A program made the translations under genes and the position numbers. A DNA stretch of 19,427 bases from a virus. The DNA lies in the UHGV virus genome UHGV-0123532, one strand, 5' to 3'. The notes beneath the pieces are model-generated. The model was not told the DNA's origin, ran no database searches, and saw only the letters and a list, made by a program, of their open reading frames with translations. The first letter of the stretch is position 1. Each line of letters starts with the position of its first letter. Below are positions 1 through 18,098 of this stretch, in pieces.

Positions 1-31
1 CTATGATTGGTTAGTAATAGAGTGTATCGGT

Positions 32-313
32 ATGCGATGTGGTTTATTAATGGCAATCTGCCTTTGTTTAGTATCTTTTAGCGGATATGCAGCAACAGGA
101 AAGTCTGATGCTCAGATCAAAAAAGAAATAATTAAAGAATCCATTGAATCTTATCCAGGCAATTGTGCGTGTCCTTATAATCATGCAAGGAATGGTAGTA
201 GATGTGGTGGACGCAGTGCATATAGCCGTAATGGAGGGTATGACGTGGTATGTTATGAGGGTGATGTTACCGATGAAATGATCCGGCAATGGAAGCAGGA
301 GAATGCTGAGTAA
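32..313 (+). CDS. hypothetical small secreted Cys-rich protein (93 aa; alternative start at 50)
   Basis: ORF from track; hydrophobic N-terminal segment (LLMAICLCLVSFSGYAA) followed by a polar region with 5 Cys; AT-rich compared with the prophage backbone; no family recognised by eye. Confidence 0.4.
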   Translation: MRCGLLMAICLCLVSFSGYAATGKSDAQIKKEIIKESIESYPGNCACPYNHARNGSRCGGRSAYSRNGGYDVVCYEGDVTDEMIRQWKQENAE

Positions 314-390
314 TCTCTTTTAACAGGTTTGTTGTGCGAGCATTATGTGCCGTTAACGGTACACTAGCTAGTGATAGTTCCAAAAAGAAA

Positions 391-423
391 ACCCGCAGTT
401 CTTACGCTGCGGGTTTGTTGTTC
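391..423. terminator. bidirectional intrinsic-terminator-like hairpin
   Basis: Stem acccgcag (391-398) pairs with ctgcgggt (407-414), 8-nt loop; A-run 381-390 upstream and T-rich 415-423 downstream, so it can terminate the plus-strand small ORF and the minus-strand hok transcript. Confidence 0.45.
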
Positions 424-501
424 ATGTCTGTGAGATAGGGTGCCACTTCAGCCAACCTTAGCAACCGATTGACGGGGGATTGCTCCCCCGTCGCGGTTTC
501 C

Positions 502-642
502 TTACTGCTTACACTGTAAGAACGCCGCAAACTCCGCTCCCCAGAAGCTCATCCGTATTTCACACAGCGAACCGTGTAGCATCCAGATGATGAGGATTAC
601 CGTCACGCAGAACGTGATGGCCGTAAGCGATTTTTGCGACAT
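502..642 (-). CDS. hok: Hok/Gef-family type I toxin, 46 aa (MSQKSLTAITFCVTVILIIWMLHGSLCEIRMSFWGAEFAAFLQCKQ)
   Basis: Hand-translated minus-strand ORF (below the 60-aa cutoff of the track); ATG at 640-642 preceded by AAGGAG; single TM helix plus conserved SLCE and AAFL-CK motifs, collinear with HokA-type toxins as remembered. Confidence 0.7.
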   Translation of the reverse strand: MSQKSLTAITFCVTVILIIWMLHGSLCEIRMSFWGAEFAAFLQCKQ

Positions 643-671
643 AGCGCTTGCTCCTTTGTTGGAGAGGCGCT
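643..671 (-). promoter_or_regulatory. stem-loop in the hok leader that pairs the Shine-Dalgarno with an upstream anti-SD
   Basis: Minus-strand RNA AGCGC-CUCUCC-AACAAA-GGAG-CAAGCGCU-AUG: outer arms agcgc/gcgcu and inner CUCC/GGAG are complementary; this matches the known translational control logic of hok mRNAs. Confidence 0.4.
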
Positions 672-833
672 AACCTATCACTTGCTTAAGGTAGATATGT
701 TAGGGCCTCGGTTAAACAGAAATGTTTTCCGGGGCCTTTCCACATCTGGCCTTCGGGTATTCCCTCCGACCATCAGCCGAAAGGCACCCGCGCGTAATCT
801 ATCGCTTTTTTGTTACTCCGGCAATTCTGCCTG

Positions 834-1094
834 TTAATTCTGAGGTAAAGGCAAACTCATCTGATTGTTTCCCCTGTGTGAAGCTGGCAGCTCATGCCAC
901 GGGATACCTTCTGAAGAGTGAACGCCGGAGGTGTGTTTTGATGTGAATTTATGGAAAGCTTCCAGTGTTGAGAAGCATACGCCGCATTCCAGGTTGTTAC
1001 ACTGGTAATACTTTTGCCGCACGGTGTTTGAATCATTTTCCGGACGACTGGTGCGGATACGGGCAGATGCGCCACAAAGCGGACAACGGAACAT
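834..1094 (-). CDS. ogr: Ogr/Delta-family zinc-finger late transcription activator
   Basis: MFRCPLCG...YYQCNNLECGVCF has the CxxC...CxxxxC pattern and resembles P2 Ogr (MFHCPLCQH...YHQCQNVNCSATF); RBS AAGGGAGG 6 nt upstream; lies directly downstream of D as in P2. Confidence 0.8.
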   Translation of the reverse strand: MFRCPLCGASARIRTSRPENDSNTVRQKYYQCNNLECGVCFSTLEAFHKFTSKHTSGVHSSEGIPWHELPASHRGNNQMSLPLPQN

Positions 1095-1136
1095 AGCGAC
1101 CTCCCTTAACGTTGTGCTGCTGCTATTCTAAGTTGC

Positions 1137-2246
1137 TCACTCTGTTTCTGCTATCCATTCCGGGATTTTTGCCTCAAGCTCAAGCTGCGTGGTAAAGCCG
1201 CTGTTATCGATGGTGTGCTCGGCTTTTGCAATAATCCAGTCCTGATTATCAATCTCGCTTTTAAATCCTGTTACCGTGCCATGCATTTCGGGGTAGAGTT
1301 CTGCACGACCACATGCCAGCGTGATGGAGAATGATGCGGCTCCGCGTTGTAGCTGCTGCCACTTTGCCGCCGCTGCGCGTCTTGCTGCCTGCTCGTTCTG
1401 ATAAGTCTTGCGTAACACAAACACATTGCCTTCCGCGCCTTCCATATAATCACCTTCGCGGCTGCTGCTTTTCTCCTTTTTGGGTTTTGGCGGTTTGCGG
1501 TGTTTCACGCTGACTTTTTTCTTTTTCCCGTAATTAAGATCAAGCCAGTAAGCGCGTACCCCCGTATACGCTTCGCGGTCAGCAATGCGGAACTGATGGC
1601 GATCGCCACTGCTGCGCGTGATGGCGAACGATGGCAACGGCTGGCCCTGTGCGTTCACGCCACCGCCTGGCATAATGAATAACAGATTACCGCTTTTTAC
1701 CGTGGTGATTGCGCCCAGCATTTCCGCCATGCGCGTAAGGAAGGACATGTCGCTTTCTTCGGTCTGGTCGGCGTGGTCGATTTCGATATCCATCAGCATT
1801 TCGCTGATTTGCGGTTTCAGACCATACCGATGAGCGATGGCGGATACCACACGCTCAACGGTCACATCATGCCAGGACACCTCACGTTTAACGTTAAATT
1901 CATCCCGAAAATCTGCGCTTCTGGCTGAAACAGTCAGCCTGTCCGGCGGTCCTTCGTGAGCGATTTCATCAACAATGTAAGTGCCTTTTTCTGTCAGCGG
2001 TTCTCCTTTCCAGCCAATGAGAACCGTCAGGCGCGCGCCCCGTGGCGGTAGCTGCAACTGACCATCCGCATCATCCAGCGTGATGGTGAGCTGGTCCGCG
2101 TCAAATCCCCGGTTGTCGGTCAGTGACAGGCTCATCAGGCGCTCTGCCACGCCTGACAGCGTTTTACCCTCCGCGAGAATATCAAAATCCGGCATTTTCA
2201 CGGGGTCTGTGCCCTGACTGAGCAATTGCATGGTGGTATCGGTCAT
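1137..2246 (-). CDS. D: P2 gpD-like tail protein (late gene D), about 370 aa
   Basis: Long ORF from track; start chosen at internal ATG 2244-2246 (MTDTTMQLL...) with GGAGGG RBS; identity by resemblance to remembered P2 gpD and by synteny with ogr. Confidence 0.8.
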   Translation of the reverse strand: MTDTTMQLLSQGTDPVKMPDFDILAEGKTLSGVAERLMSLSLTDNRGFDADQLTITLDDADGQLQLPPRGARLTVLIGWKGEPLTEKGTYIVDEIAHEGPPDRLTVSARSADFRDEFNVKREVSWHDVTVERVVSAIAHRYGLKPQISEMLMDIEIDHADQTEESDMSFLTRMAEMLGAITTVKSGNLLFIMPGGGVNAQGQPLPSFAITRSSGDRHQFRIADREAYTGVRAYWLDLNYGKKKKVSVKHRKPPKPKKEKSSSREGDYMEGAEGNVFVLRKTYQNEQAARRAAAAKWQQLQRGAASFSITLACGRAELYPEMHGTVTGFKSEIDNQDWIIAKAEHTIDNSGFTTQLELEAKIPEWIAETE

Positions 2247-2403
2247 CTGTTCCCTCCCTGTGCGGCATGGTCGCATGTGCGTGCGGAGGGGGTTACTGCT
2301 TTTTGTTGTCGCCGGATCGGGAGAACGGCACAGGGGTGAGATTACGCGCGTGGTGGGTGATGATTGTTGCCGAATCATTTAACGGATACAAGGGGCTAAA
2401 GCT

Positions 2404-3291
2404 ATGAGTGAAACTCGTTTTCATGGTGCCCGTGTTACGGAAAATACCGACCTGGTAACAGCGATTAACGATGTTGATTCCAGCGTTATCGGTATCGTGG
2501 CAACGGCGGATGATGCGGACGCGAAGCTGTTCCCGCTGAACAAGCCCACACTGCTGACCCGCGTCAATGACGTGCTGGGAAAATGCAGGACAACGGGGAC
2601 GCTTTATCGTGCGCTTAAGGCCATCGCAGACCAGGTGAGCACAAAGGTGATCGTCGTTCGCGTGGCTGAACACAAAGAAGAAGACGGAAAGACGCAGGAT
2701 CAACTGGTTATCGGTGGTTCTGAATCTGACGGCAGCTATACGGGGATGTATGCGCTGCTTGTTGCAGAGCAGGATGAAAGCATCGGATACCGTCCGCGTA
2801 TTCTGGCCGCGCCGGAGCTGGACACGGAGGCGGTGACAAAATCCCTGTGCGTGATTGCGGGTAAACTGCGCGCGTTTGTGTATGCCTCATGTCACGGCTG
2901 TAACACGATGGCTGAGGTGATTACCTACCGCCAGAAATTCAACGAACGTGAGGTGATGCTCTTATGGCCGGACTTCATCGCCTACAACCCGAAAAGTGGC
3001 AAAAACGAAACGTTCCCCGCGCCTGCCTATGCGTGCGGCCTTCGTGCGTACATTGACCATGAGCAGGGATGGCACAAATCACTGTCCAACGTTCCGGTTA
3101 AAAATGTGCTGGGGATGTCCAGGCATGTGTTCTGGTCGTTGCAGGCCGAAGACAGCGATGCCAACAGCCTCAACAACAAAGAAATCACGACCATTATTCG
3201 TCGCAACGGGTTCCGCTTCTGGGGCAACCGCACACCGGAAACGAACGCCTACATCTTTGAGGTGTATGCCGGAACATCGGCCAGCGTCTGA
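2404..3291 (+). pseudogene. FI: tail sheath protein FI, C-terminally truncated fragment (295 aa of about 396)
   Basis: Clear collinear similarity to P2 FI (TFPLNKP, LRAF-Y, WPDF-A, EQGWHK-LSNV, LIRR-GFRFWGNRT) ending near P2 residue 300; on the opposite strand to D/L/M/N and converging with the L-like ORF. Confidence 0.75.
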
Positions 3292-3608
3292 TGGCCAGCC
3301 GCCTGCTGTTCCTGCTGCCACGCTTCCAGTTCGCGGGTAACGTGAGCCACGGCCCCAGTGGCGGTATGCAGCAGGCGGGAGGTGGTCACGCGGCCCGGCA
3401 GTCGTACCGCCAGACGCAGCTCGCGCAGCACAATATCCGGCCAGAATGCACCTGCTGAAATGCGAGTGTCGCCATCATCGGTATCGGTGATGTCGTCCTC
3501 TGCGGGTCCTGGTTCAGTTCTGGCAACCATACTCATGGAGTTCACTCCTGAAAAAAAATCGGGCGGTGGGTGCGCGGTGTAAACGGTCACGGAGTCAAAC
3601 CGGAACAC
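3249..3608 (-). pseudogene. putative truncated head completion protein (gpL-like), GTG start
   Basis: Assigned only by position (starts 31 bp after the M stop, as L follows M in P2); its last ~14 codons (3249-3291) are antisense to the FI fragment, so the native reading frame is probably cut at the junction; P2 L is about 169 aa. Confidence 0.3.
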
Positions 3609-3639
3609 CGCGCACGCCGCCCGCTGACGGGGTCAGTCG

Positions 3640-4440
3640 TTAACCGCGCTTCGCCTTCTGCGACGCGGTGGTTTTTCGTGTTGCAGGCTTCTGCGTTGTC
3701 TTTTTACTTTTGCTGCTTTCGTCCTGCGTCTGCTGTGCGCTGGCGTCTTCTGGTGCGGCTGCGGAATCGGCTTTTTTCAGGGCGCGGGAAAGGGTTGCAA
3801 TCTCGCGTTTCACACCTGCGTTCGGGTTCAGGTGCATCGCTTCGCGCAGCAGCTTCAGTGATGAGGCCATGTTGTCTGCATCGGTCAGGCCACGACGGGC
3901 AAAGGCACACGCCTTGCATAATTTGGCGCGCACTTCGTCCGGCATGTCCTGGTTGGCGACAATTTCCCAAAGTGTGTCCAGTGGTTCGATAAAGGCGGAT
4001 AAATCCGCGTCGGCATCCGTCCCGGCCTGCGTCAGTACCGGGTTGCAGATTTCTTCGGTCAGTACCGTGGCAGCAGTACGGCCAAAGTTATCCGGCATGA
4101 TGAGGTTGTGACGGACCACATATGCACCAATACGCAGCGCCAGCGGAAGATCGCCGCAGTCAATCGCCCACACCATCAGCGTGGCAATTACTTCGTCCTG
4201 TTGCCCGCCGTCAGTCTCCAGCGTTCCCTCAATCCAGCCGGAAAAGTCCGGCAACAACTCTTTTTTGATGGCGGCTTTCGCGCTTCTGGCCTGTACGCCC
4301 TTTAGCCTGGCCTGTGCCAGACGCAGACGATACAGCACCTCTTCATGCGCGGTACGCGCGGCGTGGTCCACACCTTCATTCGCCCGGCCTGCGCGCTGTG
4401 CCATCACGTTCTGCCAGTGTTGTTGTGCAGGAGTAATCAT
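3640..4440 (-). CDS. M: terminase small (endonuclease) subunit, gpM-like
   Basis: 266-aa ORF with GGAGAG RBS; similar to remembered P2 gpM (PAQ-H, DMPDEVRAKL, basic Lys/Arg-rich tail); synteny N-M. Confidence 0.8.
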   Translation of the reverse strand: MITPAQQHWQNVMAQRAGRANEGVDHAARTAHEEVLYRLRLAQARLKGVQARSAKAAIKKELLPDFSGWIEGTLETDGGQQDEVIATLMVWAIDCGDLPLALRIGAYVVRHNLIMPDNFGRTAATVLTEEICNPVLTQAGTDADADLSAFIEPLDTLWEIVANQDMPDEVRAKLCKACAFARRGLTDADNMASSLKLLREAMHLNPNAGVKREIATLSRALKKADSAAAPEDASAQQTQDESSKSKKTTQKPATRKTTASQKAKRG

Positions 4441-4457
4441 TTTTTCTCTCCGTTACA

Positions 4458-4476
4458 GGCGGGCATGATGCCCGCC
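4458..4476. other. perfect palindrome/hairpin between N and M (ggcgggcat-g-atgcccgcc)
   Basis: Seen directly; GC-rich 9-bp arms; no U-tract on the minus strand, so more likely an mRNA processing or stability element than a strong terminator. Confidence 0.35.
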
Positions 4477-4485
4477 GTGAGTTGA

Positions 4486-5538
4486 TTAGCTGTCGGCGAA
4501 CTTCAGGCCAGTGATCATCGCGCACTTGCCATAGTCTTCAACGACATAAGCGTCATTGATGGACTGGTAGGTGGCGATGCGGTTGTATTCCGGCTCGTCT
4601 TTCATCAGGCGACGCATTGAACCTTTCTGCCAGTAAATCGACAGGTTGTTGAACGAGGTGATAAGCATCGTTGCATCCGGGAAGAACGGCGCAAGGAACA
4701 CGCCCAGCCCGCCAATGGTGCGCGATGACAGGATGAGCTGCCCGGCAAGTAATTCCGCATTGGGATTCTGGCCGCTGATGCTGTTCAGCACGGGCAGACG
4801 CAGCGAGTTAAACAGGTTGCGCCCCATAATCACCGCGAGGTCGTCAGCTTCCTTGTGCCATTCATCCAGCAGGGATGAGCGCGCATCCTGTACCAGAGCA
4901 TCGGCATTCGCATACTTACCCGCGTGCGCCACAGTGTTGTCCATGTTGCGGGAGGTCAGCGTCACGTCATTCATTACGCGCTCGCTGGCATCGGTTCTGA
5001 TGTGCTCCAGCCAGCCCACGTTAACGTCCTGAAGCAGCTTGTTGGTGTGAAAATCAGACTCGTAGGCGTGGGATGTGCCGTTAAAGCCAATCATGATGCG
5101 ATCAAGCGCTACCTGCCGGGCGATCTGTGTACTGATACGGGACTGAAAATCGCTGTGGGCCGCCCAGGTATCAAGCTGTGGGTACGAAATAAAGGTATCG
5201 TAGTTCACCTGTTCGCACTGGTACTGACGAGACTTCATATCGATCACGTTATTCGGGTTACGGCGTTTGATGCCGTCATAACTGCTATTCGTGCGCGCAA
5301 TTGGCCCGGTGGTGTCCAGGAGGATTTTTTCGCCTTTCTGGTCGGTCACGCCGATCACGTTAATTCTTTTCGTAAATTCGGTACTTTCCTTTGAGGCGTT
5401 TTCAAAACGCTGCTGCACCGCGGGTTCCACGGTAAATCGCGATACCAGTGCAGATACCGGGATATTGTTAAGCGACGCCTGCTGCGCCATATAGCAACCC
5501 AGCTTGTTGCGGGTAATATCTGACATCACCAGATTCAT
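4486..5538 (-). CDS. N: major capsid protein, gpN-like
   Basis: 350-aa ORF; AGGAG RBS 10 nt before ATG at 5536-5538; collinear similarity to P2 gpN (FTVEP, IGFNG, GWL, LSIYW, YVVEDY). Confidence 0.9.
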   Translation of the reverse strand: MNLVMSDITRNKLGCYMAQQASLNNIPVSALVSRFTVEPAVQQRFENASKESTEFTKRINVIGVTDQKGEKILLDTTGPIARTNSSYDGIKRRNPNNVIDMKSRQYQCEQVNYDTFISYPQLDTWAAHSDFQSRISTQIARQVALDRIMIGFNGTSHAYESDFHTNKLLQDVNVGWLEHIRTDASERVMNDVTLTSRNMDNTVAHAGKYANADALVQDARSSLLDEWHKEADDLAVIMGRNLFNSLRLPVLNSISGQNPNAELLAGQLILSSRTIGGLGVFLAPFFPDATMLITSFNNLSIYWQKGSMRRLMKDEPEYNRIATYQSINDAYVVEDYGKCAMITGLKFADS

Positions 5539-5561
5539 AAAAAATTTGCTCCTTTGTCTTA

Positions 5562-5938
5562 TCAGAAGTCAGCCAGCTGGTCGGAGGCTGCGCCCGTTGC
5601 GGTGAAGCGGTTCTGCGGATCGCCGTCCTGTGTGCGCAGTTTTTCCTTCAATGCTGTCAGCTCTGTGGTCAGTGACGTGATTTTCTGGCGGTCCTGCTGA
5701 TGGCGGGTTCCGTAATATCTTCCGTACTCAGCGCGGTGACATCGCCCATTGCGGAAAATTCGCTTGACGGGCATGGCGAGAGATAGTGCTCAACGTTCAC
5801 GCGGGCAGCGTAAACATCCGGGTTGAAGTTCTCGGCGGCTTCACGCAGATGTACCTGGCTGATTTCGCGGCCATCAACAGTTGATCCGGAGACAGCCACG
5901 CGAAACTTTTTGCGGGATGTCTTTTTTTCATTAGCCAT
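5562..5938 (-). pseudogene. O: capsid scaffold gpO-like, internally deleted and frameshifted
   Basis: N-terminal piece (MANEKKTSRKKFRVAVSGSTVDGREISQVHLREAAENFNPDVYAARVNVEHY..GDV) in one frame and C-terminal piece (TELTALKEKL...ATGAASDQLADF) in another; total locus about 377 bp against about 855 bp for P2 O. Confidence 0.6.
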
Positions 5939-6092
5939 AGTTTTTGCCCCTCTGACTGGTTCTTCAGTCATGATGGCAAAGCGTAACAGGCTGATAAAAA
6001 GGGCTTTTGTTGTAAGAAAACGGCCAGAACAGGGGGTTAAGGAGAACGGTTTCGCGCGCGGGTAATCTTCCTGTAATTACTCAGGGGGAGCA
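5939..6092. promoter_or_regulatory. divergent late-promoter region between O and P
   Basis: By synteny with P2 (divergent P and O operon promoters); no convincing TGT-N12-ACA Ogr dyad found by eye, so assigned by position only. Confidence 0.35.
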
Positions 6093-7844
6093 ATGATTCA
6101 GGACGCTTTTGTGCGCCAGCGTGCGCGGCAACTTTACTGGCAGGGTTATCCGCCCGCAGAAATATCACGTCTGATGGGAATAAACCCGAACACGATTTAT
6201 GCGTGGAAAAAACGCGACCAGTGGGATGAAACGCCACCCGTGCAGCGTGTCACGCAGTCCATCGATGCGCGCCTCATCCAGCTTACTGAAAAACAGAATA
6301 AAACAGGCGGTGACTTTAAGGAAATTGACCTGCTGACCCGGCAGCTTAAAAAAATGCATGATGGCCAGCCGGATGCGACGGCCACAGGAAAGAAAGGCCG
6401 GGCGAAAAAACTCAAAAATCATTTCACGCCGGAACAGATTGCCGCACTGCGGGAAAAAATCATCAGCAGGCTGGAGTGGCATCAGCGGGGCTGGTTTGAC
6501 TCCCTGACCCTTTGCAGGGAAGCCGGGATACGTAACAGGATGATCCTGAAATCCCGACAGATTGGCGCGACCTGGTATTTTGCACAGGAAGCACTGCTGA
6601 TGGCGCTGCGTGACGATGTGGCGCAACCTTACCAGCGTAACCAGATTTTTTTGTCTGCGTCGCGTCGTCAGGCGTTCCAGTTTAAAAGCATTATTCAGAA
6701 GGCTGCGGCTGAAGTTGATGTGGAGCTGAAAGGGGGCGATAAAATCATCCTCTCCAACGGCGCAGAGCTGCATTTTCTCGGCACTTCTGCTGCGTCGGCG
6801 CAGTCCTATACGGGCAATTTTTATTTTGATGAATTTTTCTGGGTCAGTCGCTTTGCTGAACTGCGCAAGGTGGCTGGCGCTATGGCAACCCTCAGCGGAT
6901 TGCGGCGCACCTACTTCTCCACGCCATCCACCGAAACGCACGAAGCATACGCCTACTGGAACGGCGACCGCTGGAACGAGAAAAAGGCCACACATAAACG
7001 CCAGCGTTTTTCTGTGGACTGGAAAACACTGCATAACGGGCTTATCTGCCCTGACCGGACGTGGCGGCAAATTGTCACGCTGGAAGATGTGGTTAATCAC
7101 GGCTGGAAACACACCGATATCGACGAAATTCGTGATGAAAACACCGAAGACGAGTTCCTCAATCTCTATATGTGTGAGTTTGTCCGCGAAGGGGAATCGG
7201 CATTTAACCTGAATATCCTGATTGGCTGCGGTGTTGACGGATACGACGACTGGAAAGACTGGAAACCTTTTGCTCCCCGCCCGATGGGGAATCGTCCGGT
7301 ATGGATTGGGTATGACGCAAACGGCAGCAGTGGCAACGGCGACAGCGGCGCTGTGTCCGTGGTGGTTCCTCCGGCTGTTCCTGGTGGCCGTTTTCGAACG
7401 GTGGAGACGCGACGCGTTCAGGGGCTGGAGTTTGAAGAACAGGCCAGAGTCATTGAAGATTTCACGTATCGCTACAACGTGGAACACATCGGCATTGATG
7501 TGACGGGCGGGAACGGGGAGGCTGTTTATCAGATAGTGAAACGGTTTTTCCCTGCCGCTATTCCGTACACCTTCACGCTGTCATCAAAACGGTCGCTTGT
7601 ACTGAAAATGCTGCAAATAATGCGTGCCGGGCGGTGGGAATACGATCGCGCCGAACGCGAGCTGGTCGCGGCCTTTAACGCCGTGCGTAAGGTGAAAACA
7701 CCGGGCGGCTTTATCACTTACGAAACGGACCGCGCGAGGGGGATCAGCCACGGCGACCTTGCGTGGGCAACCATGCTTGCTGTCATTAACGAACCAATTG
7801 GCGGCGAAGGAGAAAACGAGCGTTTCACGGTTATGGAGTTCTGA
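6093..7844 (+). CDS. P: terminase large (ATPase) subunit, gpP-like
   Basis: 583-aa ORF, length and position match P2 gpP; stop overlaps the Q start (TGATG at 7842-7846). Confidence 0.85.
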   Translation: MIQDAFVRQRARQLYWQGYPPAEISRLMGINPNTIYAWKKRDQWDETPPVQRVTQSIDARLIQLTEKQNKTGGDFKEIDLLTRQLKKMHDGQPDATATGKKGRAKKLKNHFTPEQIAALREKIISRLEWHQRGWFDSLTLCREAGIRNRMILKSRQIGATWYFAQEALLMALRDDVAQPYQRNQIFLSASRRQAFQFKSIIQKAAAEVDVELKGGDKIILSNGAELHFLGTSAASAQSYTGNFYFDEFFWVSRFAELRKVAGAMATLSGLRRTYFSTPSTETHEAYAYWNGDRWNEKKATHKRQRFSVDWKTLHNGLICPDRTWRQIVTLEDVVNHGWKHTDIDEIRDENTEDEFLNLYMCEFVREGESAFNLNILIGCGVDGYDDWKDWKPFAPRPMGNRPVWIGYDANGSSGNGDSGAVSVVVPPAVPGGRFRTVETRRVQGLEFEEQARVIEDFTYRYNVEHIGIDVTGGNGEAVYQIVKRFFPAAIPYTFTLSSKRSLVLKMLQIMRAGRWEYDRAERELVAAFNAVRKVKTPGGFITYETDRARGISHGDLAWATMLAVINEPIGGEGENERFTVMEF

Positions 7845-8890
7845 TGAGCAGAAAAAATAAAAAAGTGCGCATGAGTTCACGCATTGATCTCGCTGATGCA
7901 CTCAGGAAAGAATCGTCGCTCAGTGCATTCACTTTTGATGGTCCTTATCGCCTGACCGGGCATGATTTGCTGGACAATATGTACTGTGCTGATAACGGGC
8001 GGTGGTATGAAACCCCGGTGGACTGGTACGGTCTGGCAAGAGCCGCCCGGCAAACGTCCTGGCATCAGTCTGCGCTTTACTTTAAGCGCAATGTATTGCT
8101 CGGTTGCTACATCCCGCACCCGCTGCTTTCCCGGCAGGATTTCTCGGCACTGGCGCTGGACTGGTTTGTGTTCGGTAACGCATTCCTTGAGCTTCGAAGC
8201 AATATGCTCGGCGAACCGCTTAAATTACGGCACGCCCTGGCGAAATACATACGACGCGGAAGCGATCTTGAATCATGGTGGTATGTGCAGGATGGCAAGG
8301 ATGCGTTCCAGTTTCGCCCTGGCAAAGTGTGCCACCTGATGAATCCTGACATTAACCAGGAAATCTACGGCATGCCGGAATATCTCGGCGCATTACTCTC
8401 GGCCAGCCTGTCTCATTCGGCGGACATGTTCAGAAAACTGTATTACGACAACGGATCCCACGCCGGGTGCATCATCTACATCGGTGCAGCGCAGGTAAAC
8501 CGCGAAAGCATGGACTCTCTGAAAGAAACGCTACAGGGTGCACGTGGTGGCGGTGCGTTTAAAAACGTGCTCATTCATGCGCCCAACGGGGGCAAAGAGG
8601 GGGTGCAAATTTTGCCGTTCCAGCAGATCACCGCAAAGGATGAGTTCATGAATGTTAAGGCGGCATCCCGTGATGATGTGCTGGCTGCGCACCGCGTTCC
8701 GCCGCAACTAATGGGGGCGATGCCGGGTGAAAAAAGTGCGTTTGGTGATGTGGAGAAGGCCGCGCGGGTTTACGCAATTAACGAGCTGATGCCCATCATG
8801 GAGGCCATGAAGCACATCAATGACTGGCTTGGCGAAGAGGTGATCCGCTTTAACCCTTACGCACTGTTAGATACCCAGCTCACATCCTGA
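7844..8890 (+). CDS. Q: portal (capsid vertex) protein, gpQ-like
   Basis: 348-aa ORF translationally coupled to P; length and position match P2 gpQ. Confidence 0.85.
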   Translation: MSRKNKKVRMSSRIDLADALRKESSLSAFTFDGPYRLTGHDLLDNMYCADNGRWYETPVDWYGLARAARQTSWHQSALYFKRNVLLGCYIPHPLLSRQDFSALALDWFVFGNAFLELRSNMLGEPLKLRHALAKYIRRGSDLESWWYVQDGKDAFQFRPGKVCHLMNPDINQEIYGMPEYLGALLSASLSHSADMFRKLYYDNGSHAGCIIYIGAAQVNRESMDSLKETLQGARGGGAFKNVLIHAPNGGKEGVQILPFQQITAKDEFMNVKAASRDDVLAAHRVPPQLMGAMPGEKSAFGDVEKAARVYAINELMPIMEAMKHINDWLGEEVIRFNPYALLDTQLTS

Positions 8891-8917
8891 CGCGCTTCGC
8901 TTGTCTGCTGCTTCGCC

Positions 8918-8940
8918 GGGGCATAAAAAATTTATGCCCC
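8918..8940. terminator. hairpin downstream of Q (ggggcataaa-aaa-tttatgcccc)
   Basis: Perfect 10-bp stem with 3-nt loop starting 28 bp after the Q stop; no clean U-tract, so a weak or factor-assisted terminator. Confidence 0.4.
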
Positions 8941-9220
8941 GACTCTCCAGCTCCTGTATCAGTCAGATAATTTCACGACGCTTTACAGTATATCGCCACC
9001 ATCGACGGTCAGACTCTTACGCAATCCCACCGCGTTGACTGCATGTTCTTCGCCGCCTCAGTGCGATTTTGACGGCCTTACCTTTCACCCCATCAAATCA
9101 GAATCCCTCACGTATTTTTCACGCTCAGCGTGAGAAATACAGCCATTCTGTTGTGTCTCTGCGACATCGTTCAGGGAATGCTATTTACCCCCTGAAACGC
9201 GGGCTGTTCCCCCGTCACCT

Positions 9221-9272
9221 GCGCGCAGAAAAAACGCGTTTTTTTGTGCATGCACGGATCCTTGACGGATCC
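9221..9272. repeat. dense cluster of short palindromes
   Basis: GCGCGC (9221-9226), AAAAAACGCGTTTTTT (9229-9244), GTGCATGCAC (9246-9255), GGATCC twice (9256-9261, 9267-9272), all seen directly. Confidence 0.6.
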
Positions 9273-9315
9273 AGCCGCCACGCGGGCCGGAAGGGTAAAA
9301 AGTCGTTCAAAAAAA

Positions 9316-9345
9316 TTGTGCAAATTTGTGCACTATTGTGCAAAC
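9316..9345. repeat. three tandem copies of TTGTGCA at exact 10-bp period
   Basis: tTGTGCAaat / tTGTGCActa / tTGTGCAaac at 9316, 9326, 9336; helical-turn phasing suggests a protein-binding array. Confidence 0.55.
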
Positions 9346-9581
9346 CGAACGGAGTGCTTATTTATAGAAAAATTGAGCCTATGTATACGACGTTGCTTAT
9401 AAATACATCCCTGACTGTTATGTGAAAATATGCAAAGAAAATTACATGCTATGGAGATGAGAGTTATAACGACCTTTTCTACTTATTTGTAAAAGAGGTC
9501 GTTATGTAAAAGTTAAATTATTTTTTACTCTTGATATGTGTAAAAAATATAGCTTTGATGTTTATATCCTATTAGAATATA

Positions 9582-11279
9582 TTATTTATCCTCTTTAATG
9601 ATTTTGTTATAGTCAAAATCCCAAATTTTTCTGTCAATGCCGTTTGTTGGTGTAACCCGGTAGAATAAGGATCGTAATCCATTGTAAAAATACTGGAGAG
9701 ATTTCTGATTTTCTGGTTTGTCTAACCAGTTTCTTGTAATCATTCTAAAGAATTCAATATGCTGATTGAATATTTTCTTATTTAATTTTCTTCTTAAACC
9801 GGATGTAGACTCATGGTTGTCTTTTCTTTTCTGAATTTCAGTTTCAATTGATTGTAATTGAGGACGTATCTTGAGTAAGTATAACTCTTTCGAAAAACCA
9901 TTGTTAATTATATCCTGATTTTCCCAGAAGGAAGAGTCGTCGGTATTATAAAGGTGCTCACAATGCTCAAATATCAATTGTTCTGGAGCTTTTTCACCCG
10001 GCAGTGATATAATTCCTCTCTGATCCTCAGGGCTGTGATCTCCATCAAGAATACAAATTGATTTTAACGAGGTTTCCTTAAGATGAGAATCATTAAAAAT
10101 AGTTTTTAAATTGTCTGCACCAATGAAACAATCAATTAAGTGAAATGAATTACTAACTATAGCAAAATTTGGATATTTGCTTATCCAATAACCAAGTATT
10201 TCATTAAATAAAAAGCGAGCTTCTTCATCTTCCGTGAAAACTGGTATCTTGTTCCTTGTGTATATCTCATCCTTTGTTTGTGTTTTCAGATACATTGTTA
10301 TTTTTAATATATCAGGATTATCCAAAAGCAGAGCCTTTGTAATATTGTTAATTAGATAGACAACATGGTATTTTTTATGAAAAGCATATTCTAGCAATGT
10401 CAGACTGTGCGTTGTGAAAAATACTTGAATCTTATAATCTTTTGCGTATTGATAAATTTTATCTAATAATCTTATCTGTAAAGAAGGATGTAAAGTGGCA
10501 TCAAATTCATCTATTAACAGAATGCTTTCTTTTTGATCAGTGGATTGAATAAGTGATTCAAAATAATACCTAAGGCTAACTAATGCCTTGATTATAATGA
10601 ATATATTGTCTTCCCCGGATGATATGGTATTAGAATCAATTGCTGGGTTATCGGTATCAAATAATGGGCCAGCTTTAAAATCTCCGATATTGTTTGATTC
10701 TATATTTATAATATTAATGCCCAAAAGTTCATTATATATTTTCGATATATAACCAACATACTCTTCTGGTAGGTTTAACGGAATTTTTGTAAGGGCGTCG
10801 TCTTTAGTTTCACCAATTGGGAATAGTCGCGATAATCCAAGATATAAAACTGGTTTAGCTGGAAGTGATTGTTTTTCTTTTCCGCGTGGGTATACTGGTT
10901 TGATAGCATACCGTTGCGCTTCGTCTGGATTTTTTGAGTTGTGCTTTCTGAAGTCTAGTGTGCTATGATCCAAATAGTTAATAGAAAATAACACACCTTT
11001 TGTTCCCTCTGCCGGATCGGTGTAATTTTTTGATTCCCTAACAATTGCTTCCATTTTGGGGTTGGCTATTTTGTTTATAGATTTTATAACTCTAACACAA
11101 TTACTATTTGAATAATTTTGTGATCGAGATGGTGGCATTTGGAAACCATTGCTAATTAAATGAAGCAATGTTGTCTTACATGTCCCATTGGTTCCTGATA
11201 TTATATTGATGTCTTCATTGAATGAGAAGTCAATATCTATCAGTTTCTTAAATTTTTTAAAACTAATTTCTTTAATCAT
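9582..11279 (-). CDS. OLD-family ABC-type ATPase with C-terminal Toprim-like nuclease region (565 aa)
   Basis: N-terminal P-loop SGTNGTCKTTLL; Walker B/D-loop LLIDEFDATLHP and H-loop FFTTHS typical of AAA_15/AAA_21 OLD-like ATPases; downstream conserved acidic motifs VFTEDEE and ILDGDHS spaced like the Toprim Glu and DxD; AGGA RBS; AT-rich. Confidence 0.6.
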   Translation of the reverse strand: MIKEISFKKFKKLIDIDFSFNEDINIISGTNGTCKTTLLHLISNGFQMPPSRSQNYSNSNCVRVIKSINKIANPKMEAIVRESKNYTDPAEGTKGVLFSINYLDHSTLDFRKHNSKNPDEAQRYAIKPVYPRGKEKQSLPAKPVLYLGLSRLFPIGETKDDALTKIPLNLPEEYVGYISKIYNELLGINIINIESNNIGDFKAGPLFDTDNPAIDSNTISSGEDNIFIIIKALVSLRYYFESLIQSTDQKESILLIDEFDATLHPSLQIRLLDKIYQYAKDYKIQVFFTTHSLTLLEYAFHKKYHVVYLINNITKALLLDNPDILKITMYLKTQTKDEIYTRNKIPVFTEDEEARFLFNEILGYWISKYPNFAIVSNSFHLIDCFIGADNLKTIFNDSHLKETSLKSICILDGDHSPEDQRGIISLPGEKAPEQLIFEHCEHLYNTDDSSFWENQDIINNGFSKELYLLKIRPQLQSIETEIQKRKDNHESTSGLRRKLNKKIFNQHIEFFRMITRNWLDKPENQKSLQYFYNGLRSLFYRVTPTNGIDRKIWDFDYNKIIKEDK

Positions 11280-11296
11280 CTATATCATCCTTAAAT

Positions 11297-12142
11297 TTAA
11301 ATGTCAGGGATTTTTATACCATGATTATAAATGATAATTTCTAGACCTTTTTTCTTATCTTGTGCAGTATAATTAAGCGTATAATCAGTCATATTGAATT
11401 CATGATATATGCTTTTTATTTCAGGCACATTGTCATAAGACACAACCCAAGGTAGTTGAATTTCCCGTAGTGTATTAGCGATTTTTACATGATCATCATG
11501 TTTATAAAAATTTCTATATAACTCTGCTCCTTTAACATAATAAGGTGGATCAAGATATATTAGACTATTTTGGGGTAGCAATGCTTTTTGGTGTAGCAGA
11601 AAATCTACAGCATCAAAATTCGATACGTAAATTTTCTCCTTATATGCACCAATTAGTTCAATCCTTTTAATTAACTCTTTTTTGTTGAATCTTGCATCTA
11701 ACTTCCATGGTCCTTTTTGTTCTTTCCCTCCAATAACGCCAGCCTTAAGTATTCCTGAACGGTTTGTTCTATTTAAAAAGAAAGTAGATAATGCGACTTC
11801 AAGCATACTATATTTATCATTGTTTAGGAGTATCTCCTTTTGAGTATGCCAATTTTCAATAGTCACAGGAACTTCATCAATCATTTCACATAACAGATCG
11901 TTATGATTAACCACTGCAAACCAAAAAGAATAAAGGGCAGGATCAATATCATTTATGAAGATATTTTCAACAAGACCGTTAAGGAGCAAACCTAATGCTA
12001 CACCGGCTCCACCTGCATAAGGTTCAGCATAACATCCACCAATGAGATCATTGTTGCGGAGTATTTGTTCAATATGTGGCAAGAATTTTGCCTTACCTCC
12101 CGGATAACGAAGAGGGGTTCTAAAATGAGAAGGCTTTGTCAT
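11297..12142 (-). CDS. Dam-like (D12 class) N6-adenine DNA methyltransferase (281 aa)
   Basis: LRYPGGK N-terminal motif, AdoMet motif EPYAGGAGV, catalytic DPPY; stop lies 17 bp upstream of the ATPase start, same strand. Confidence 0.85.
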   Translation of the reverse strand: MTKPSHFRTPLRYPGGKAKFLPHIEQILRNNDLIGGCYAEPYAGGAGVALGLLLNGLVENIFINDIDPALYSFWFAVVNHNDLLCEMIDEVPVTIENWHTQKEILLNNDKYSMLEVALSTFFLNRTNRSGILKAGVIGGKEQKGPWKLDARFNKKELIKRIELIGAYKEKIYVSNFDAVDFLLHQKALLPQNSLIYLDPPYYVKGAELYRNFYKHDDHVKIANTLREIQLPWVVSYDNVPEIKSIYHEFNMTDYTLNYTAQDKKKGLEIIIYNHGIKIPDI

Positions 12143-12229
12143 CCACGATTTTCTCAGTAAAAAATAAACATAATCTTAACATGGCACTTGAGTTTTCCCG
12201 ATAAAAAACATCGTCGCCGTCCATAGATA

Positions 12230-12247
12230 TTTGCATAGTTATGCAAA
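12230..12247 (-). promoter_or_regulatory. inverted repeat TTTGCATA-gt-TATGCAAA in the leader of the methyltransferase operon
   Basis: Perfect 8-bp arms seen directly; located between the predicted promoter and the MTase start, an operator-like or 5' UTR hairpin position. Confidence 0.4.
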
Positions 12248-12275
12248 AAATCCAGTTTTCAATGAATTAAGGGGA

Positions 12276-12305
12276 ATTATATCAATTGCATTCTATTCAA
12301 CACAA
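12276..12305 (-). promoter_or_regulatory. candidate sigma70 promoter for the MTase-OLD operon
   Basis: Minus strand TTGTGT-N18-TATAAT (perfect -10 at 12276-12281, -35 at 12300-12305), immediately after the gene A stop. Confidence 0.35.
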
Positions 12306-12327
12306 TATTCGGTTAGCGATTCACATC

Positions 12328-15153
12328 TCATCCCTCATGATGGAAAAGGCATATCCAACTTTGTAATTGTTTTTTCTCATCATCATTTTGATTACTAAAG
12401 TGCTGTTTGCCTCTCTTTTGGAGCAAAGTAGCCTTGCGGCGGGCGCGTTCAGTGGTTTCATTGATTCTTTGTGCGTGCTCTGCGTCACGGATGGCGCGCA
12501 GCATGTCAGAAAGCACGGTAACGGGGGTTTTCATGGTGTTCTGGTCCTGCTGAAGTGTGGATGCCAGACGTGCGGCGGCTTCGGGGTCTGATGCCCCCAG
12601 TTGTTCCAGATAGCTGGCGACCGGGTTATGACGGATCTCTGTGCTGCTTACGCCGTGATTACGGCTCAGGCGCTGCCAGAGCTGCGTAATTCGGCTGGCC
12701 GGGCGGGTATCCGGTTTGCGTACAATTTCAAATCCCTGCGGTGCAATGATGCTGCCGTCAACGTACAGGCTGCCGCCCCGTAACAGGTGCTGCATCTGCT
12801 GTTCACCGATATGCAGGCCGAGAGATTCGGCAGATTCCCGCCATTCTTTAGCGAGTAATTCGTGGTTATCAGGCAAAGGCCGCTGCTGTTTGCGGCTCTG
12901 TGTCCAGCTCTGCATTTCATCACTGCTGTTTTTTGCCTGTTTGTCACGAAGCGAACGCATCAGCGCCCGGCGTTCGTGCCGTTTCAGTGAGCGCATCCAT
13001 TCGTTCACTTCAACGCCGTCAGGAAGCTGCGGCCACGGTGCTGGCCGTTCTTTCGACTGTTCTGTCCCGCTGTTGCCTGTTTCCTGTACACGGGGACAGT
13101 TATTGCCACGAGTCCAAGGGGCGGCAGGGCCGCCCTGAAGGTCAAAACCATTTTCGCGGGCGCTGTCTTCCGCTTCCGGTTTGCGTCTTACCAGCTTCCA
13201 GTTATCCGGATGCGTGCACACACGGGAGGATTCCCCGATGAGTGGTGACCAGATCCCGTAAATCTGTACGCTCTGTTCGCCGTAATCGTTCAGCTCATCG
13301 GCGAGGTCGTAGGCGGTGCGAATCAGGTAGTCTTTGCGTGGAACAAGTACGCCGCCCTGTTTCTCAATGTAGGTGGCAAAACATCCGGCATCAGCGGCAG
13401 CAAGAACCGCATCCATTGCGTCATCCTTCAGCCGTTGCGGGCCTTCCGGGTTGCGTGCCATCTGGCTGGCAAGGCGACGCAGTTCACGCCACACCTGACG
13501 GGAGGGGATGCCAAAGAACTGGAACTGGCGGACCCGGTGAAGGCGCGCCCAGCCAATGGCGCGTTCCACGCTCTCGGTCATTGATTTTCCGGTTTCGTGG
13601 TCAACGCGTGGTTTGCCTGTTTTCGGGTCGATGCCATCCACGGCGCGGCTGTCCAGGTTTTTTCCGATGTAGGTGGCGATGTAGCTGGTTGGCGTGCCTT
13701 TTGAGCCGTCGACATACTCCGCCTTAAAGCGCGGAGTAATATCATCGCCCAGCTCGTGACGATCTTCCTGAATGGCAATATCGCGGGTGTGGGACACAAT
13801 GGTGTCGATTTCTTCCGGATGAGCAAAGACCATCATATGCCAGTGCACGGTGCCGTCATGGTGAGGCTCCACCGTGCGGATGCCATACCAGCGCAGGCCG
13901 TCGCGGTTCAGTTTCTTGCGGACCGCCGCAAAAAACGTGTTAACCAGGTAATCGCTGGAGTCGCGCATGGTGGCCCCGTTCCATTTGGGATTCGGATGAC
14001 CGTTCTCTGTTGTAGCGTGGTATTTTGACGGGCAGGTGACAGTCAGAAACACCGCTTTGTCGCCACGGGCTTCGGCCAGAAGTTCCAGCCCCTTCATGGT
14101 GGCCATCATTTCTGCCTTACGGTGAACCGGGTTACTTACTCCCGCGTAATACACTGTCTCGAGATCAATCGTGAACCCGTCTTCGTTTTCCAGCATGAAA
14201 CTTTTCAGGAAATCGCGTGTTTTCTCGCGCTGTGCGCGAAACTCGCTTAACGCGTCCTGGCTCAGATAGGGCGATGTTTTTCTGGAAACCAGACAGGCGG
14301 CGCGGAGTTGTTCTTCTCTCCACTCGCAACGTAACAGCCACAGTTTGCGTTTCCACCATTCCGCACAGGTCAGGCGAAGGATTGCGCCCGGCAGCAGCTC
14401 CGTGTCCGGTTCGTTCCTCCGGTCTTTGTCTGTTGTCAGTGCGTCATAATGTGGAGGCATGGCGTGCAGGTGTAACGCCATGCGGGCCAGCATCTGATAC
14501 GCCTTCAGCGTTACATCCATGGTCAGTTCGCCATCGGTCGCGCCAAAGCCATCGCAGAGTTTTTCGAAGGTGCTGCTGAACATCGCCGCCGTCATGGTGG
14601 CCAGCGTCTGTATCTGGTGTTTGTTGAGCTGCGGCAGGTAAAGCAAATCGTCCAGGCGTTCGCGTCCGGCAAGGGAGCGATAACCCTGTGTCAGCCAGCG
14701 GTGATCGGTGCGCTCCAGACGTTCGAATATTTTGCGCAGGTTTCCGCGCGCGTAGCGTTCAGCCTGCCAGCTCTTTTTGCCTTTCTGACGATCGGCTTCC
14801 TGTTTTTTGCGCAGGAAGGAGAGGTGGCGAATAAGCGGATCGCGCAGATAGGACGGCAGCAGGCGCAGCGAGGCCATGGCTTCATCCACCGCACCGCGTG
14901 CCTGTTTTCTGGCGTCTCCTGCCAGTGTGATGGTTTTGTCCTGTTTTTCCTGTGCGTCCAGGCTTTTATTAATCAGGTTGCCCAGCGGCGTTGCGGAGAA
15001 CGCCGCATCAGCCATTTCCTGGCGGCGCTCGTTCTCTACCCGGTAGGCATCCAGCCAGGAGGAAAGCGCGGATTCAGGAGCGGGGATCCCCGTTCCTTCA
15101 CGCCCCACTGCGTGGCGCGGTTGTTGCCAGTCCCTGATGTACTCTGCCGTCAT
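12328..15153 (-). CDS. A: replication initiation endonuclease, gpA-like (rolling-circle HUH type), 941 aa
   Basis: HUH-type motif TVHWHMMVF and paired tyrosines YIATYIGK characteristic of P2 A-family proteins; position after the early operon. Confidence 0.85.
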   Translation of the reverse strand: MTAEYIRDWQQPRHAVGREGTGIPAPESALSSWLDAYRVENERRQEMADAAFSATPLGNLINKSLDAQEKQDKTITLAGDARKQARGAVDEAMASLRLLPSYLRDPLIRHLSFLRKKQEADRQKGKKSWQAERYARGNLRKIFERLERTDHRWLTQGYRSLAGRERLDDLLYLPQLNKHQIQTLATMTAAMFSSTFEKLCDGFGATDGELTMDVTLKAYQMLARMALHLHAMPPHYDALTTDKDRRNEPDTELLPGAILRLTCAEWWKRKLWLLRCEWREEQLRAACLVSRKTSPYLSQDALSEFRAQREKTRDFLKSFMLENEDGFTIDLETVYYAGVSNPVHRKAEMMATMKGLELLAEARGDKAVFLTVTCPSKYHATTENGHPNPKWNGATMRDSSDYLVNTFFAAVRKKLNRDGLRWYGIRTVEPHHDGTVHWHMMVFAHPEEIDTIVSHTRDIAIQEDRHELGDDITPRFKAEYVDGSKGTPTSYIATYIGKNLDSRAVDGIDPKTGKPRVDHETGKSMTESVERAIGWARLHRVRQFQFFGIPSRQVWRELRRLASQMARNPEGPQRLKDDAMDAVLAAADAGCFATYIEKQGGVLVPRKDYLIRTAYDLADELNDYGEQSVQIYGIWSPLIGESSRVCTHPDNWKLVRRKPEAEDSARENGFDLQGGPAAPWTRGNNCPRVQETGNSGTEQSKERPAPWPQLPDGVEVNEWMRSLKRHERRALMRSLRDKQAKNSSDEMQSWTQSRKQQRPLPDNHELLAKEWRESAESLGLHIGEQQMQHLLRGGSLYVDGSIIAPQGFEIVRKPDTRPASRITQLWQRLSRNHGVSSTEIRHNPVASYLEQLGASDPEAAARLASTLQQDQNTMKTPVTVLSDMLRAIRDAEHAQRINETTERARRKATLLQKRGKQHFSNQNDDEKKQLQSWICLFHHEG

Positions 15154-15159
15154 AGTGAT

Positions 15160-15525
15160 TTACTTCGTCATGCCATTCAGGGTGTCGCGGCAGGCTGTAG
15201 CCAGCCGCTGAATTTCCAGCACGGTGTCTTCTGTGTCGGCATGGCGATGTGTGATGCGGATGCTGTCGGCAATCACATCGACGATTGCAGAGGATGGGCG
15301 CTGGTAAATGCCAATAACGGACGGGGTGCCACCTTCAATGCGGTAAAGCCTGTAATTTCCCTCGTGGCTGTCAATCATGTAGCGACCATCAATAACAATC
15401 TTTCCGTCAGCGAGCTGCGGTACAGGCAGGGATTTCTGGTACATGTCATAACGATCACGCACGCGAGCGGCAAGATCACGTTCTGTGTTGAGCAGGTATT
15501 CAAGAAAGTCGTTGGCGAGAATCAT
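15160..15525 (-). CDS. hypothetical early-operon protein (121 aa)
   Basis: ORF with AAGAGGA RBS; stop 6 nt before the gene A start. Confidence 0.55.
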   Translation of the reverse strand: MILANDFLEYLLNTERDLAARVRDRYDMYQKSLPVPQLADGKIVIDGRYMIDSHEGNYRLYRIEGGTPSVIGIYQRPSSAIVDVIADSIRITHRHADTEDTVLEIQRLATACRDTLNGMTK

Positions 15526-15597
15526 TGCGGCAATCCTCTTGTTACAGATGTGCGAAGGCCTCCCGCCGCAAGGTGCAGGAAAGGCCCGGAACAGGAA

Positions 15598-15828
15598 TTA
15601 ATGGAGTTTGTTTTGCTGCTGGATGAGCTGTTGAAGCTCGTGCAGATCATCCGCCAGATAGCTGAAAACAGAGGCGGAATAAATGTTTGATAGTGCGTGG
15701 CTGCGCTCATGCAGCATATTGATGTGCATGATTTGCGCGACGCGTGATGCGCGGGAAAGTCTGCGGTTGATTTCAGTCTGGATGTGACGACGCTCCGCGA
15801 TAGCGCGGTGTGGTTTGCGGTTTGCCAT
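15598..15828 (-). CDS. hypothetical early-operon protein (76 aa)
   Basis: ORF with AAGGGG RBS embedded in the 3' arm of an upstream stem. Confidence 0.5.
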   Translation of the reverse strand: MANRKPHRAIAERRHIQTEINRRLSRASRVAQIMHINMLHERSHALSNIYSASVFSYLADDLHELQQLIQQQNKLH

Positions 15829-15838
15829 GGTGTGGCCC

Positions 15839-16059
15839 CTTGTGTAGTAAGTTGTGAAAACTCACCATCCAGAGCTGCGAAACTGTGGGTGGCGAGACGT
15901 ACGAGGTTCGCAGTACCGGCTACACAAGAACCCGGCCCGACCGAAGTCGGCCCCGTACGCCCCGCCATAATTCTGACGCGAAAAAAACGTGGCAATACAG
16001 TACGCACAAAAAAACCGCTGGCGCGGTTGTGCGCTTGTGTAGTCAGCAGGCTGCGAAAC
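15839..16059. repeat. three copies of a bipartite motif CTTGTGTAG ... CTGCGAA(A)C in alternating orientation
   Basis: Forward copies at 15839-15847/15875-15883 and 16034-16042/16051-16059; reverse-complement copy at 15906-15913/15920-15928; all seen directly. Confidence 0.6.
16003..16028 (-). terminator. intrinsic-terminator-like hairpin plus U-tract on the minus strand inside the early operon
   Basis: Minus-strand RNA AACCGC-GCCA-GCGGUU followed by a U-run (plus-strand A-run 16008-16014). Confidence 0.4.
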
Positions 16060-16150
16060 CCGACACCCGTTTTGTGAGGTGCAGCGGAAATGTAACCTGA
16101 CTGATTGCGGCATGGCAAGCGGTTTTTTTGTGTGTGCATGTTCTGGTTTC

Positions 16151-16450
16151 TTACTGGTTCAGAAAAAAATCAAAAACCTTGTCAATGCGTTGCAGCAGCT
16201 CTTGCTGTATTGCTTCCGGTGTTTCCGGTTCGCCTGGCGCCTTCAACGTCGCGCAGAAATCAGCGATTTCATGATGGAGCGTCAGGCGAATGGCAGGAGC
16301 CGTGGTTCTGGCGTGCTCCAGCTCATCCAGCAGTGCCAGCACGGCAGACGGCGAGAGCATTGCGCGAAATGCCAGTAATTTTTGAGGCGTTGCCATTCGT
16401 TGCAGGGCAAATGCCAGTTCGCGTAGCTTCTGGTGGTTGATGGTGCTCAT
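16151..16450 (-). CDS. hypothetical early-operon protein (99 aa)
   Basis: ORF from track; start overlaps the upstream gene stop by 4 nt. Confidence 0.5.
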   Translation of the reverse strand: MSTINHQKLRELAFALQRMATPQKLLAFRAMLSPSAVLALLDELEHARTTAPAIRLTLHHEIADFCATLKAPGEPETPEAIQQELLQRIDKVFDFFLNQ

Positions 16451-16913: not shown

Positions 16914-16936
16914 TGCGCCCCCTTTGTCCAGTAACC

Positions 16937-17798: not shown

Positions 17799-17809
17799 CG
17801 CAACGCCCT

Positions 17810-18088: not shown

Positions 18089-18098
18089 AAAGCACCTG

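Follow-up and report, generated by a model that had tools for sequence, protein, structure and literature searches.

The locus examined here raises the question of how a truncated tail-sheath gene (FI) in a P2-family prophage came to converge on a truncated head-completion gene (L) on the opposite strand, with the genes that should lie between them missing, and of how many rearrangements are needed to explain this arrangement. The stretch of DNA analyzed (UHGV virus genome UHGV-0123532), hereafter called the window, comprises 19,427 nucleotides. A first-pass annotation of the window, made from the sequence alone and with the gene order of phage P2 as template, had proposed that, at a minimum, an inversion and a large deletion took place.

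Materials and Methods

The features of the window were taken from a listing of its open reading frames (ORFs) and from scans with PHROG and Pfam profiles. Since the window does not include the integrase end of the prophage, the condition of the element as a whole is seen only in part. Deletions were mapped by alignment with the near-complete prophage of Escherichia coli AR_0013, and the joint was compared base by base with both parental sides. Phage genomes were searched by megablast using window positions 1100-4500 as query, and a 100-bp probe across the joint was compared with complete E. coli genomes.

Results

Gene Content of the Window

At the leuZ-side prophage end lie a small conserved hypothetical gene (WP_001303543.1, window 32-313, plus strand) and a Hok/Gef-family toxin gene (about 502-642, minus strand), both of which recur in the undeleted sibling prophage described below and in P88. 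The gene ogr (834-1094, minus strand) encodes an intact Ogr/Delta-type zinc-finger late-gene activator (PF04606, E = 5e-14), the product of which is labelled Ogr/Delta-like zinc finger protein in the records of E. coli AST46 and AR_0013. It adjoins tail gene D (1137-2246, minus strand; 369 codons), which is intact, belongs to the late control D family (phrog_52, E = 2e-165; PF05954) and is an annotated CDS of 1110 bp in the AST46 record.

The tail-sheath gene fragment (2404-3267, plus strand) is separated from the divergent gene D by a spacer of 157 bp (2247-2403), and the distance between the two start codons given in the first-pass annotation was thus exact. The fragment comprises the 5' 864 of 1185 nt, i.e., 288 of 394 codons, while the 3' quarter of the gene (the last 321 nt) is gone, and its open frame continues to a stop codon at 3289-3291. 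In the profile scan the resulting ORF (2404-3291, plus strand) covers only positions 19-374 of the 496 positions of phrog_23; the Pfam domains Phage_sheath_1 and Gp18_domIII_N are present and the C-terminal sheath domain is absent. The fragment of the head-completion gene L (3268-3536, minus strand) retains the 5' ~270 of 495 nt, corresponding to about 90 of 164 codons, and covers positions 2-85 of 158 in phrog_71 and positions 1-65 of 139 in PF05926.

Beyond L follow the intact genes M for the small terminase subunit (3640-4440, minus strand; phrog_74, E = 2e-81) and N for the capsid (4486-5538, minus strand), the scaffold/protease gene O (5562-5938, minus strand), which consists of two disjoint pieces owing to a frameshifting internal deletion, and the intact genes P (6093-7844, plus strand) and Q, the portal gene (7844-8890, plus strand). 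A cargo region (9582-12142, minus strand) is located between replication gene A and the portal gene Q. Gene A and the cargo are intact, as is the repressor/cox region, in line with the earlier statement that immunity, replication and cargo had been kept.

Assignment to the P88-Type Lineage and its Native Gene Order

The window is a P88-type P2-family prophage (Peduoviridae, genus Xuanwuvirus) located beside the E. coli tRNA genes glyW-cysT-leuZ. It contains the head and packaging module of the P2 family, with capsid, portal and terminase proteins of that family and with Q-P divergent from O-N-M-L (PF05125, E = 1e-115; phrog_68, phrog_74, phrog_5751, and phrog_70). At the end of the prophage the Ogr/Delta activator adjoins tail gene D in an order that matches the P88 relatives and AR_0013. 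Nucleotide identity to P88 (NC_026014) is 94-98% in colinear blocks, and the divergent orientation of the block from sheath to U relative to D, as in P88, is seen for the part that is retained, namely the 5' end of the sheath gene. All P88-type defining features examined are thus present except completeness: the tail, tail-fibre and lysis modules and a full set of intact head genes are lacking, with 15,204 bp absent and both O and L broken.

In the megablast search, window positions 1100-3275 formed a single colinear block with 13 phage records at 94-98% identity (among them P88, Xuanwuvirus P884B11, PhiR44_2, and Citrobacter phage Shae_phiSM), and the alignments to these phage genomes were not split at the boundary between D and the sheath gene. 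The query has a match in approximately 1,420 of the 5,426 complete E. coli genomes; among the matches listed, all those without a local insertion run colinear across D and the sheath gene. In the P88 record the minus strand carries the genes U, T, E', E, FII, and FI (27600-33175) and the plus strand carries D (33333-34433), and the gap between D and the sheath gene (33176-33332) is 157 bp, equal to the spacer in the window. The AR_0013 prophage has the same arrangement of the block from sheath to U against D, the 157-bp spacer included. In P2 itself (NC_001895), FI-FII-E-T-U-D are all on one strand and co-directional with O-N-M-L, and this element of the earlier reasoning holds.

P88 is inducible and plaque-forming, as documented by a one-step growth curve and electron microscopy (EM) images in a paper in which the orientation of the sheath gene is not discussed (PMC5285337). 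Since P88 is inducible with a growth curve and EM images, the divergent order is native and functional in this lineage. An inversion of the block from FI to U relative to P2, if there was any, is an old trait of the whole lineage and not an event in the remnant.

A Single Deletion Relative to a Near-Complete Sibling Prophage

The genome of E. coli AR_0013 (NZ_CP032204, 4461500-4500500) carries a near-complete copy of the prophage at the same site downstream of pgsA-glyW-cysT-leuZ and with the same cargo. Three blocks of this copy (locus L003) cover the whole window: window 1-3275 aligns with 36888-33614 (99.88% identity), window 3267-5709 with 18418-15976 (99.96% identity) and window 5703-19427 with 15524-1798 (99.97% identity). 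The missing tail and lysis genes occur in none of these three blocks, and genes L, M, and N of the window are colinear with those of AR_0013. The AR_0013 prophage, in contrast, retains both segments missing from the window, of 15,204 bp and 460 bp; its portal gene has an internal stop in the annotation. Up to position 3267 the sheath DNA of the window is 99.9% identical to the 394-codon sheath gene of AR_0013, by which the possibility that the fragment is a full-length protein of a shorter sheath family is refuted.

The deleted segment corresponds to positions 18418-33621 of the AR_0013 locus, its length of 15,204 bp being measured against AR_0013 as a proxy parent and shifting by ~1.9 kb if the parent had other cargo, for example no DUF6645 gene. 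On the L side the 3' part of L, gene X, the holin, endolysin, LysB and LysC genes and the DUF6645 gene were lost; in the middle, genes R, S, V, W, J, I, H, and G together with the invertible fibre segment and the invertase; and on the sheath side, genes U, T, E/E', and FII along with 321 nt at the 3' end of FI. The large deletion, by which the lysis genes and nearly all genes for the tail were lost, was therefore recognized correctly in the first-pass annotation, as was the truncated sheath gene abutting a truncated L on the opposite strand, which the ORFs, the profiles and the AR_0013 alignment all confirm.

Breakpoints were mapped against AR_0013, as had been proposed earlier for a complete relative, and one novel joint was obtained, located at 3267/3268, which is the scar of the 15,204-bp deletion and the only novel joint at this locus relative to AR_0013. 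The two genes do converge tail to tail, but the joint in the DNA differs from the position near 3291 at which they had been said to meet: 3291 is the stop codon that the sheath frame encounters after seven codons of antisense L. Likewise, the ORF does have the reported ~295 codons (295 aa), but only 288 of these belong to the sheath gene and the remaining seven are antisense L.

A deletion that reached from mid-L to sheath codon 288 would by itself leave a truncated L converging on a truncated sheath gene on the opposite strand. Because the block of sheath, tube, E, T, and U is natively divergent from D, one such deletion leaves exactly the arrangement observed. We therefore consider it highly probable that the window is a P88-type prophage in which one clean internal deletion of ~15.2 kb, acting on a sheath block natively divergent from D, produced the present picture. 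Across 19.4 kb the window differs from the near-complete AR_0013 copy by a handful of bases (~0.03% divergence), which argues that the deletion is recent.

The Joint is Inherited and Not an Artefact

The 100-bp probe across the joint had a whole match in one of the 5,426 complete E. coli genomes, that of AST46. In this complete, circular RefSeq chromosome, 4,611 bp are 100% identical to window 1-4611, and the sequence resumes beyond a Mu-like insertion with a region 100% identical to window 4607-19427. The insertion is flanked by a 5-bp target duplication equal to window 4607-4611, and the window represents the state that preceded it. The inserted element is a Mu-like prophage of ~33 kb (with Mom/Com genes) that lies in the capsid gene N of AST46 (locus L002, 23387-23515 onward). 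In the AST46 record both the sheath fragment and the L fragment are annotated as pseudogenes, so that the joint is already known in the form of two pseudogenes in the RefSeq annotation.

The exact 295-aa fused ORF was found in 77 blocks of an assembly collection (ENA, JGI, and Logan), always with the same neighbours and with O broken alike, and on 47 contigs, one of which measures 4.99 Mb. The identical joint is also present in many independent assemblies from ENA, JGI, Logan, and NCBI. It is a clonally inherited allele and no artefact.

Against this background two other explanations of the arrangement were weighed. One could suppose that the assembly had merged two prophage fragments into a chimera, which is conceivable for collapsed repeats, since more than 1,370 E. 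coli genomes carry sheath sequences and more than 1,370 carry L sequences; the complete AST46 chromosome and independent assemblies with the same flanking genes carry the identical joint, however, and the similarity at the joint (1-9 bp) is too short to mislead an assembler, so that we regard a chimera as practically excluded. The inversion of the first-pass annotation would start from an ancestor with the P2 order, in which the FI region was inverted and a large segment was separately deleted, and it would have created novel joints at both D/FI and FI/L. Its appeal is that on the P2 map the strand of FI is "wrong" relative to both L and D. The order of D and FI together with the 157-bp spacer is, however, identical in viable P88-type phages and in the insertion-free matches listed among the ~1,420 matching E. 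coli genomes, window 1100-3275 aligns in one piece without a second novel joint at D/FI, and inverted repeats are absent from the breakpoints proposed for it (3285-3295 and 2247-2403). With D/FI native in P88 and AR_0013 and one joint in total, the claim of at least an inversion is contradicted, and this scenario is very improbable. The 157-bp spacer accordingly holds no rearrangement joint. The element is a recently decayed, vertically inherited remnant and a case of ordinary prophage decay.

Sequence at the Joint and Putative Mechanism

On the sheath side the parental sequence at the joint reads ...TTTGAGGTGTAT / ACCCGAAC and on the L side ...ACGGGT / GCCGGAAC (slashes mark the point of breakage), and the product reads ...GGTGTAT GCCGGAAC. 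Both sides are parental sequence in the base-by-base comparison, without filler bases at the joint. The microhomology consists of one common T, accompanied by an imperfect repeat matching at 7 of 9 positions (T[A/G]CC[C/G]GAAC).

Neither an IS nor the scar of one was found at the joint, which is not what an IS-mediated adjacent deletion would leave, and inverted repeats were absent from window 2200-3700. The joint likewise shows no site of the kind used by recombinases. Deletion by the DNA invertase of the phage was rejected as the crossover sites (TTCTTGATTACC-TT-GGTTTAGGAGAA) are unlike either breakpoint. The sheath endpoint did not coincide with a significant hairpin (z-scores from -0.5 to +0.6; local DNA z = -0.5).

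The joint most likely formed by RecA-independent illegitimate joining, either through slippage guided by microhomology or through end joining. Random slippage is not strongly indicated, as the microhomology amounts to one perfect base plus the imperfect 7/9 repeat. Moreover, the sheath endpoint is shared with three other deletions, which a purely random illegitimate event would not predict, and site-specific initiation of the break may have been involved.

Recurrent Deletion Endpoints

The sheath-side endpoint ...GGTGTA/TA, which lies inside the hexamer GTATAC, is common to four junction types within 1-2 nt, each with a different partner. In the window and in AST46 the sheath site at 3267 is joined to L at nt 270. 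In CAVP819 the junction reads GGTGTATA/TCGCC and the partner is L at nt 78, while in TW10598 and an IMG/VR contig it reads GGTGTATA/ACCACGCC, the partner being gene R with the lysis genes kept. In a Logan contig (L021) the junction GGTGTAT/AACCGCGC leads to the stop codon of M. The sheath endpoint is located at L005 4642, L006 4667-4670, L013 1136-1141, and L021 1398 in the other loci compared. With the P88-type L allele as reference, all four junctions are composed of the left arm ...GGTGTA, a common T or TA, and the partner. The four left arms belong to different SNP haplotypes without derived SNPs in common, that of the window being the AR_0013 haplotype, which points to independent events. 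Sheath breaks within 150 bp of the site were found in 4 of the 1,380 E. coli records that carry the region, three of them exactly at the site, and the other truncated sheath variants are each broken at a different place of their own.

A second recurrent endpoint is located in the stop codon of M, at its TA (window 3641-3642; GTCGT/TA/ACCGCGC), and has three partners, being joined in E2386 to the tube gene, in L021 to the sheath hot site, and in B2C to gene I (endpoint at L007 5379-5380, L096 12753-12754, and L021 1398). A 287-aa sheath fragment at the contig ends of five draft contigs (P0124) terminates in ...YIFEV, exactly at the recurrent sheath endpoint, which suggests that a repeat element may abut the site in those genomes. 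By an exact-pattern scan of viral contigs one further contig of the TW10598 type was recovered; in metagenome collections and collections of species-representative genomes the junctions gave chance 17-mer matches only.

In draft assemblies many sheath proteins (P0122-P0134) are interrupted at residues 254-287, where the contigs end. Separately, five proteins that are truncated or frameshifted (P0028, P0041, P0043, P0051, and P0057) all diverge at sheath residues 237-240 (...NVLG(MS); window about 3112-3123), which may be another mutation-prone spot in the sheath gene, the variants being unrelated.

Several candidate causes of the recurrence were examined. The P2 ori nick site, Chi and long repeats elsewhere in the prophage did not match at the endpoint, and intact phages showed no mosaic boundary at the hot site. 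A restriction cut alone was rejected because GTATAC occurs six times in the prophage and the site is not singled out by it. The IS4 of CE0021a sits at about nt 195 of the sheath gene, away from the hot site, and was likewise discarded. A sequence 4 nt from the site matches the end of IS1203 at 10 of 13 positions, but equal or better matches exist at 12 other sites in the prophage, and this pseudo-end beside the hot site is a weak lead.

As an alternative to random joining, a site-specific break or nick, or the action of a transposase or recombinase, at GGTGTA/TA could recurrently start one-sided deletions towards L, the far end then being picked by 1-3 bp of homology and the window being one of the products. 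The coincidence, within 1-2 nt, of the sheath endpoints of four junction types with differing partners and independent-looking haplotypes, the exact position of three of the four nearby breaks among the 1,380 E. coli records, the similar reuse of the M stop TA with three partners and the sheath fragment that stops at the site on five draft contigs are all consistent with such a process. Against it stand the insignificant hairpin, the lack of likeness to the invertase crossover sites, the P2 ori nick site or Chi, the absence of an IS at the site in every genome examined, an IS1203-end match no better than that of 12 other sites, and a sample of junctions that is small and was gathered opportunistically. 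We therefore put this mechanism forward only tentatively, as possible rather than probable. That GGTGTA/TA in the P88-type sheath gene, and perhaps the M stop TA, is a site-specific fragile or recombination point at which one-sided deletions of the tail module begin repeatedly and independently in different lineages of E. coli is somewhat less likely still. If true, it would imply directed inactivation of prophages by a candidate enzyme of the host, the phage or a mobile element.

Further Decay and Cargo

Gene O carries a deletion of its own, mapped against AR_0013, of 460 bp with the joint at 5708/5709, where TT is common to both sides, and the reading frame is shifted after codon 77. The profile of O accordingly matches only at positions 2-78 and 237-281 of 287. 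The same 460-bp deletion was present in all examined copies of the window-type element.

With O broken and L truncated, heads would not be built, and from its gene content the element should be unable to build tails or to lyse its host, in agreement with the earlier view that it is defective. Since tail genes are lacking, the remnant is no tailocin either. That the remaining genes are intact is uninformative with respect to selection because the remnant differs from AR_0013 by so few bases, and the first-pass reading as a domesticated prophage does not follow from it.

The cargo comprises a DNA adenine methylase gene, the product of which matches the defence-system protein PD-Lambda-5_B (E = 9e-122), and an adjoining gene for a 565-aa AAA ATPase with generic ATPase-family matches only (PtuA, GajA, AriA, and ATPase-Toprim). 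The undeleted sibling AR_0013 has this methylase cargo as well.

Discussion

Defective P2-family prophages with internal deletions are common. What the present locus adds is primarily a methodological correction: rearrangements have to be read against a reference of the right lineage, here the P88 type and not P2, and one deletion then suffices. Follow-up may be worthwhile for the recurrent endpoint alone. If its reuse reflects a specific enzyme or DNA feature, prophage decay would be directed and not random, and this could be addressed with a PCR-based assay.

Other decayed copies provide a first comparison. AST46, CAVP819, TW10598, E2386, B2C, EC130, and O157:H7 PV15-279 all carry a leuZ-linked P88-type prophage with internal losses wherever the flank was examined. 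The joint of AST46 is identical to that of the window, with the Mu-like prophage in N in addition, whereas CAVP819 and TW10598 have only the sheath endpoint in common with the window, and E2386, B2C, and EC130 have joints other than that of the window. In O157:H7 PV15-279 an IS1203 and an IS30 fragment replace the N-terminal part of T, the genes E, FII, and FI, and the start of D, which is a different, IS-associated route of decay. In this strain the IS1203/IS30 region lies between a tape-measure gene without its N-terminal part and a shortened D (locus L015, 14990-20192).

Among characterized phages, P88 and its relatives (NC_026014, NC_049391, PV340564, and OR565851) share with the window the order ogr-D, the divergent sheath gene and the 157-bp spacer, as well as the order of Q-P and O-N-M-L and the replication gene A. 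The window differs from P88 by the absence of ~15.2 kb (from the 3' end of L to the 3' end of FI) and of 460 bp of O, and by the genes between A and Q, which are the methylase and ATPase cargo in the window and ParM/partition genes in P88. P2 belongs to the same family and has the same set of genes (Q, P, O, N, M, L, FI, D, ogr, and A), but in P2 FI-FII-E-T-U-D form one F operon, whereas in the P88 type the block from FI to U is inverted relative to D. P2 is consequently the wrong template for inferring rearrangements in the window.
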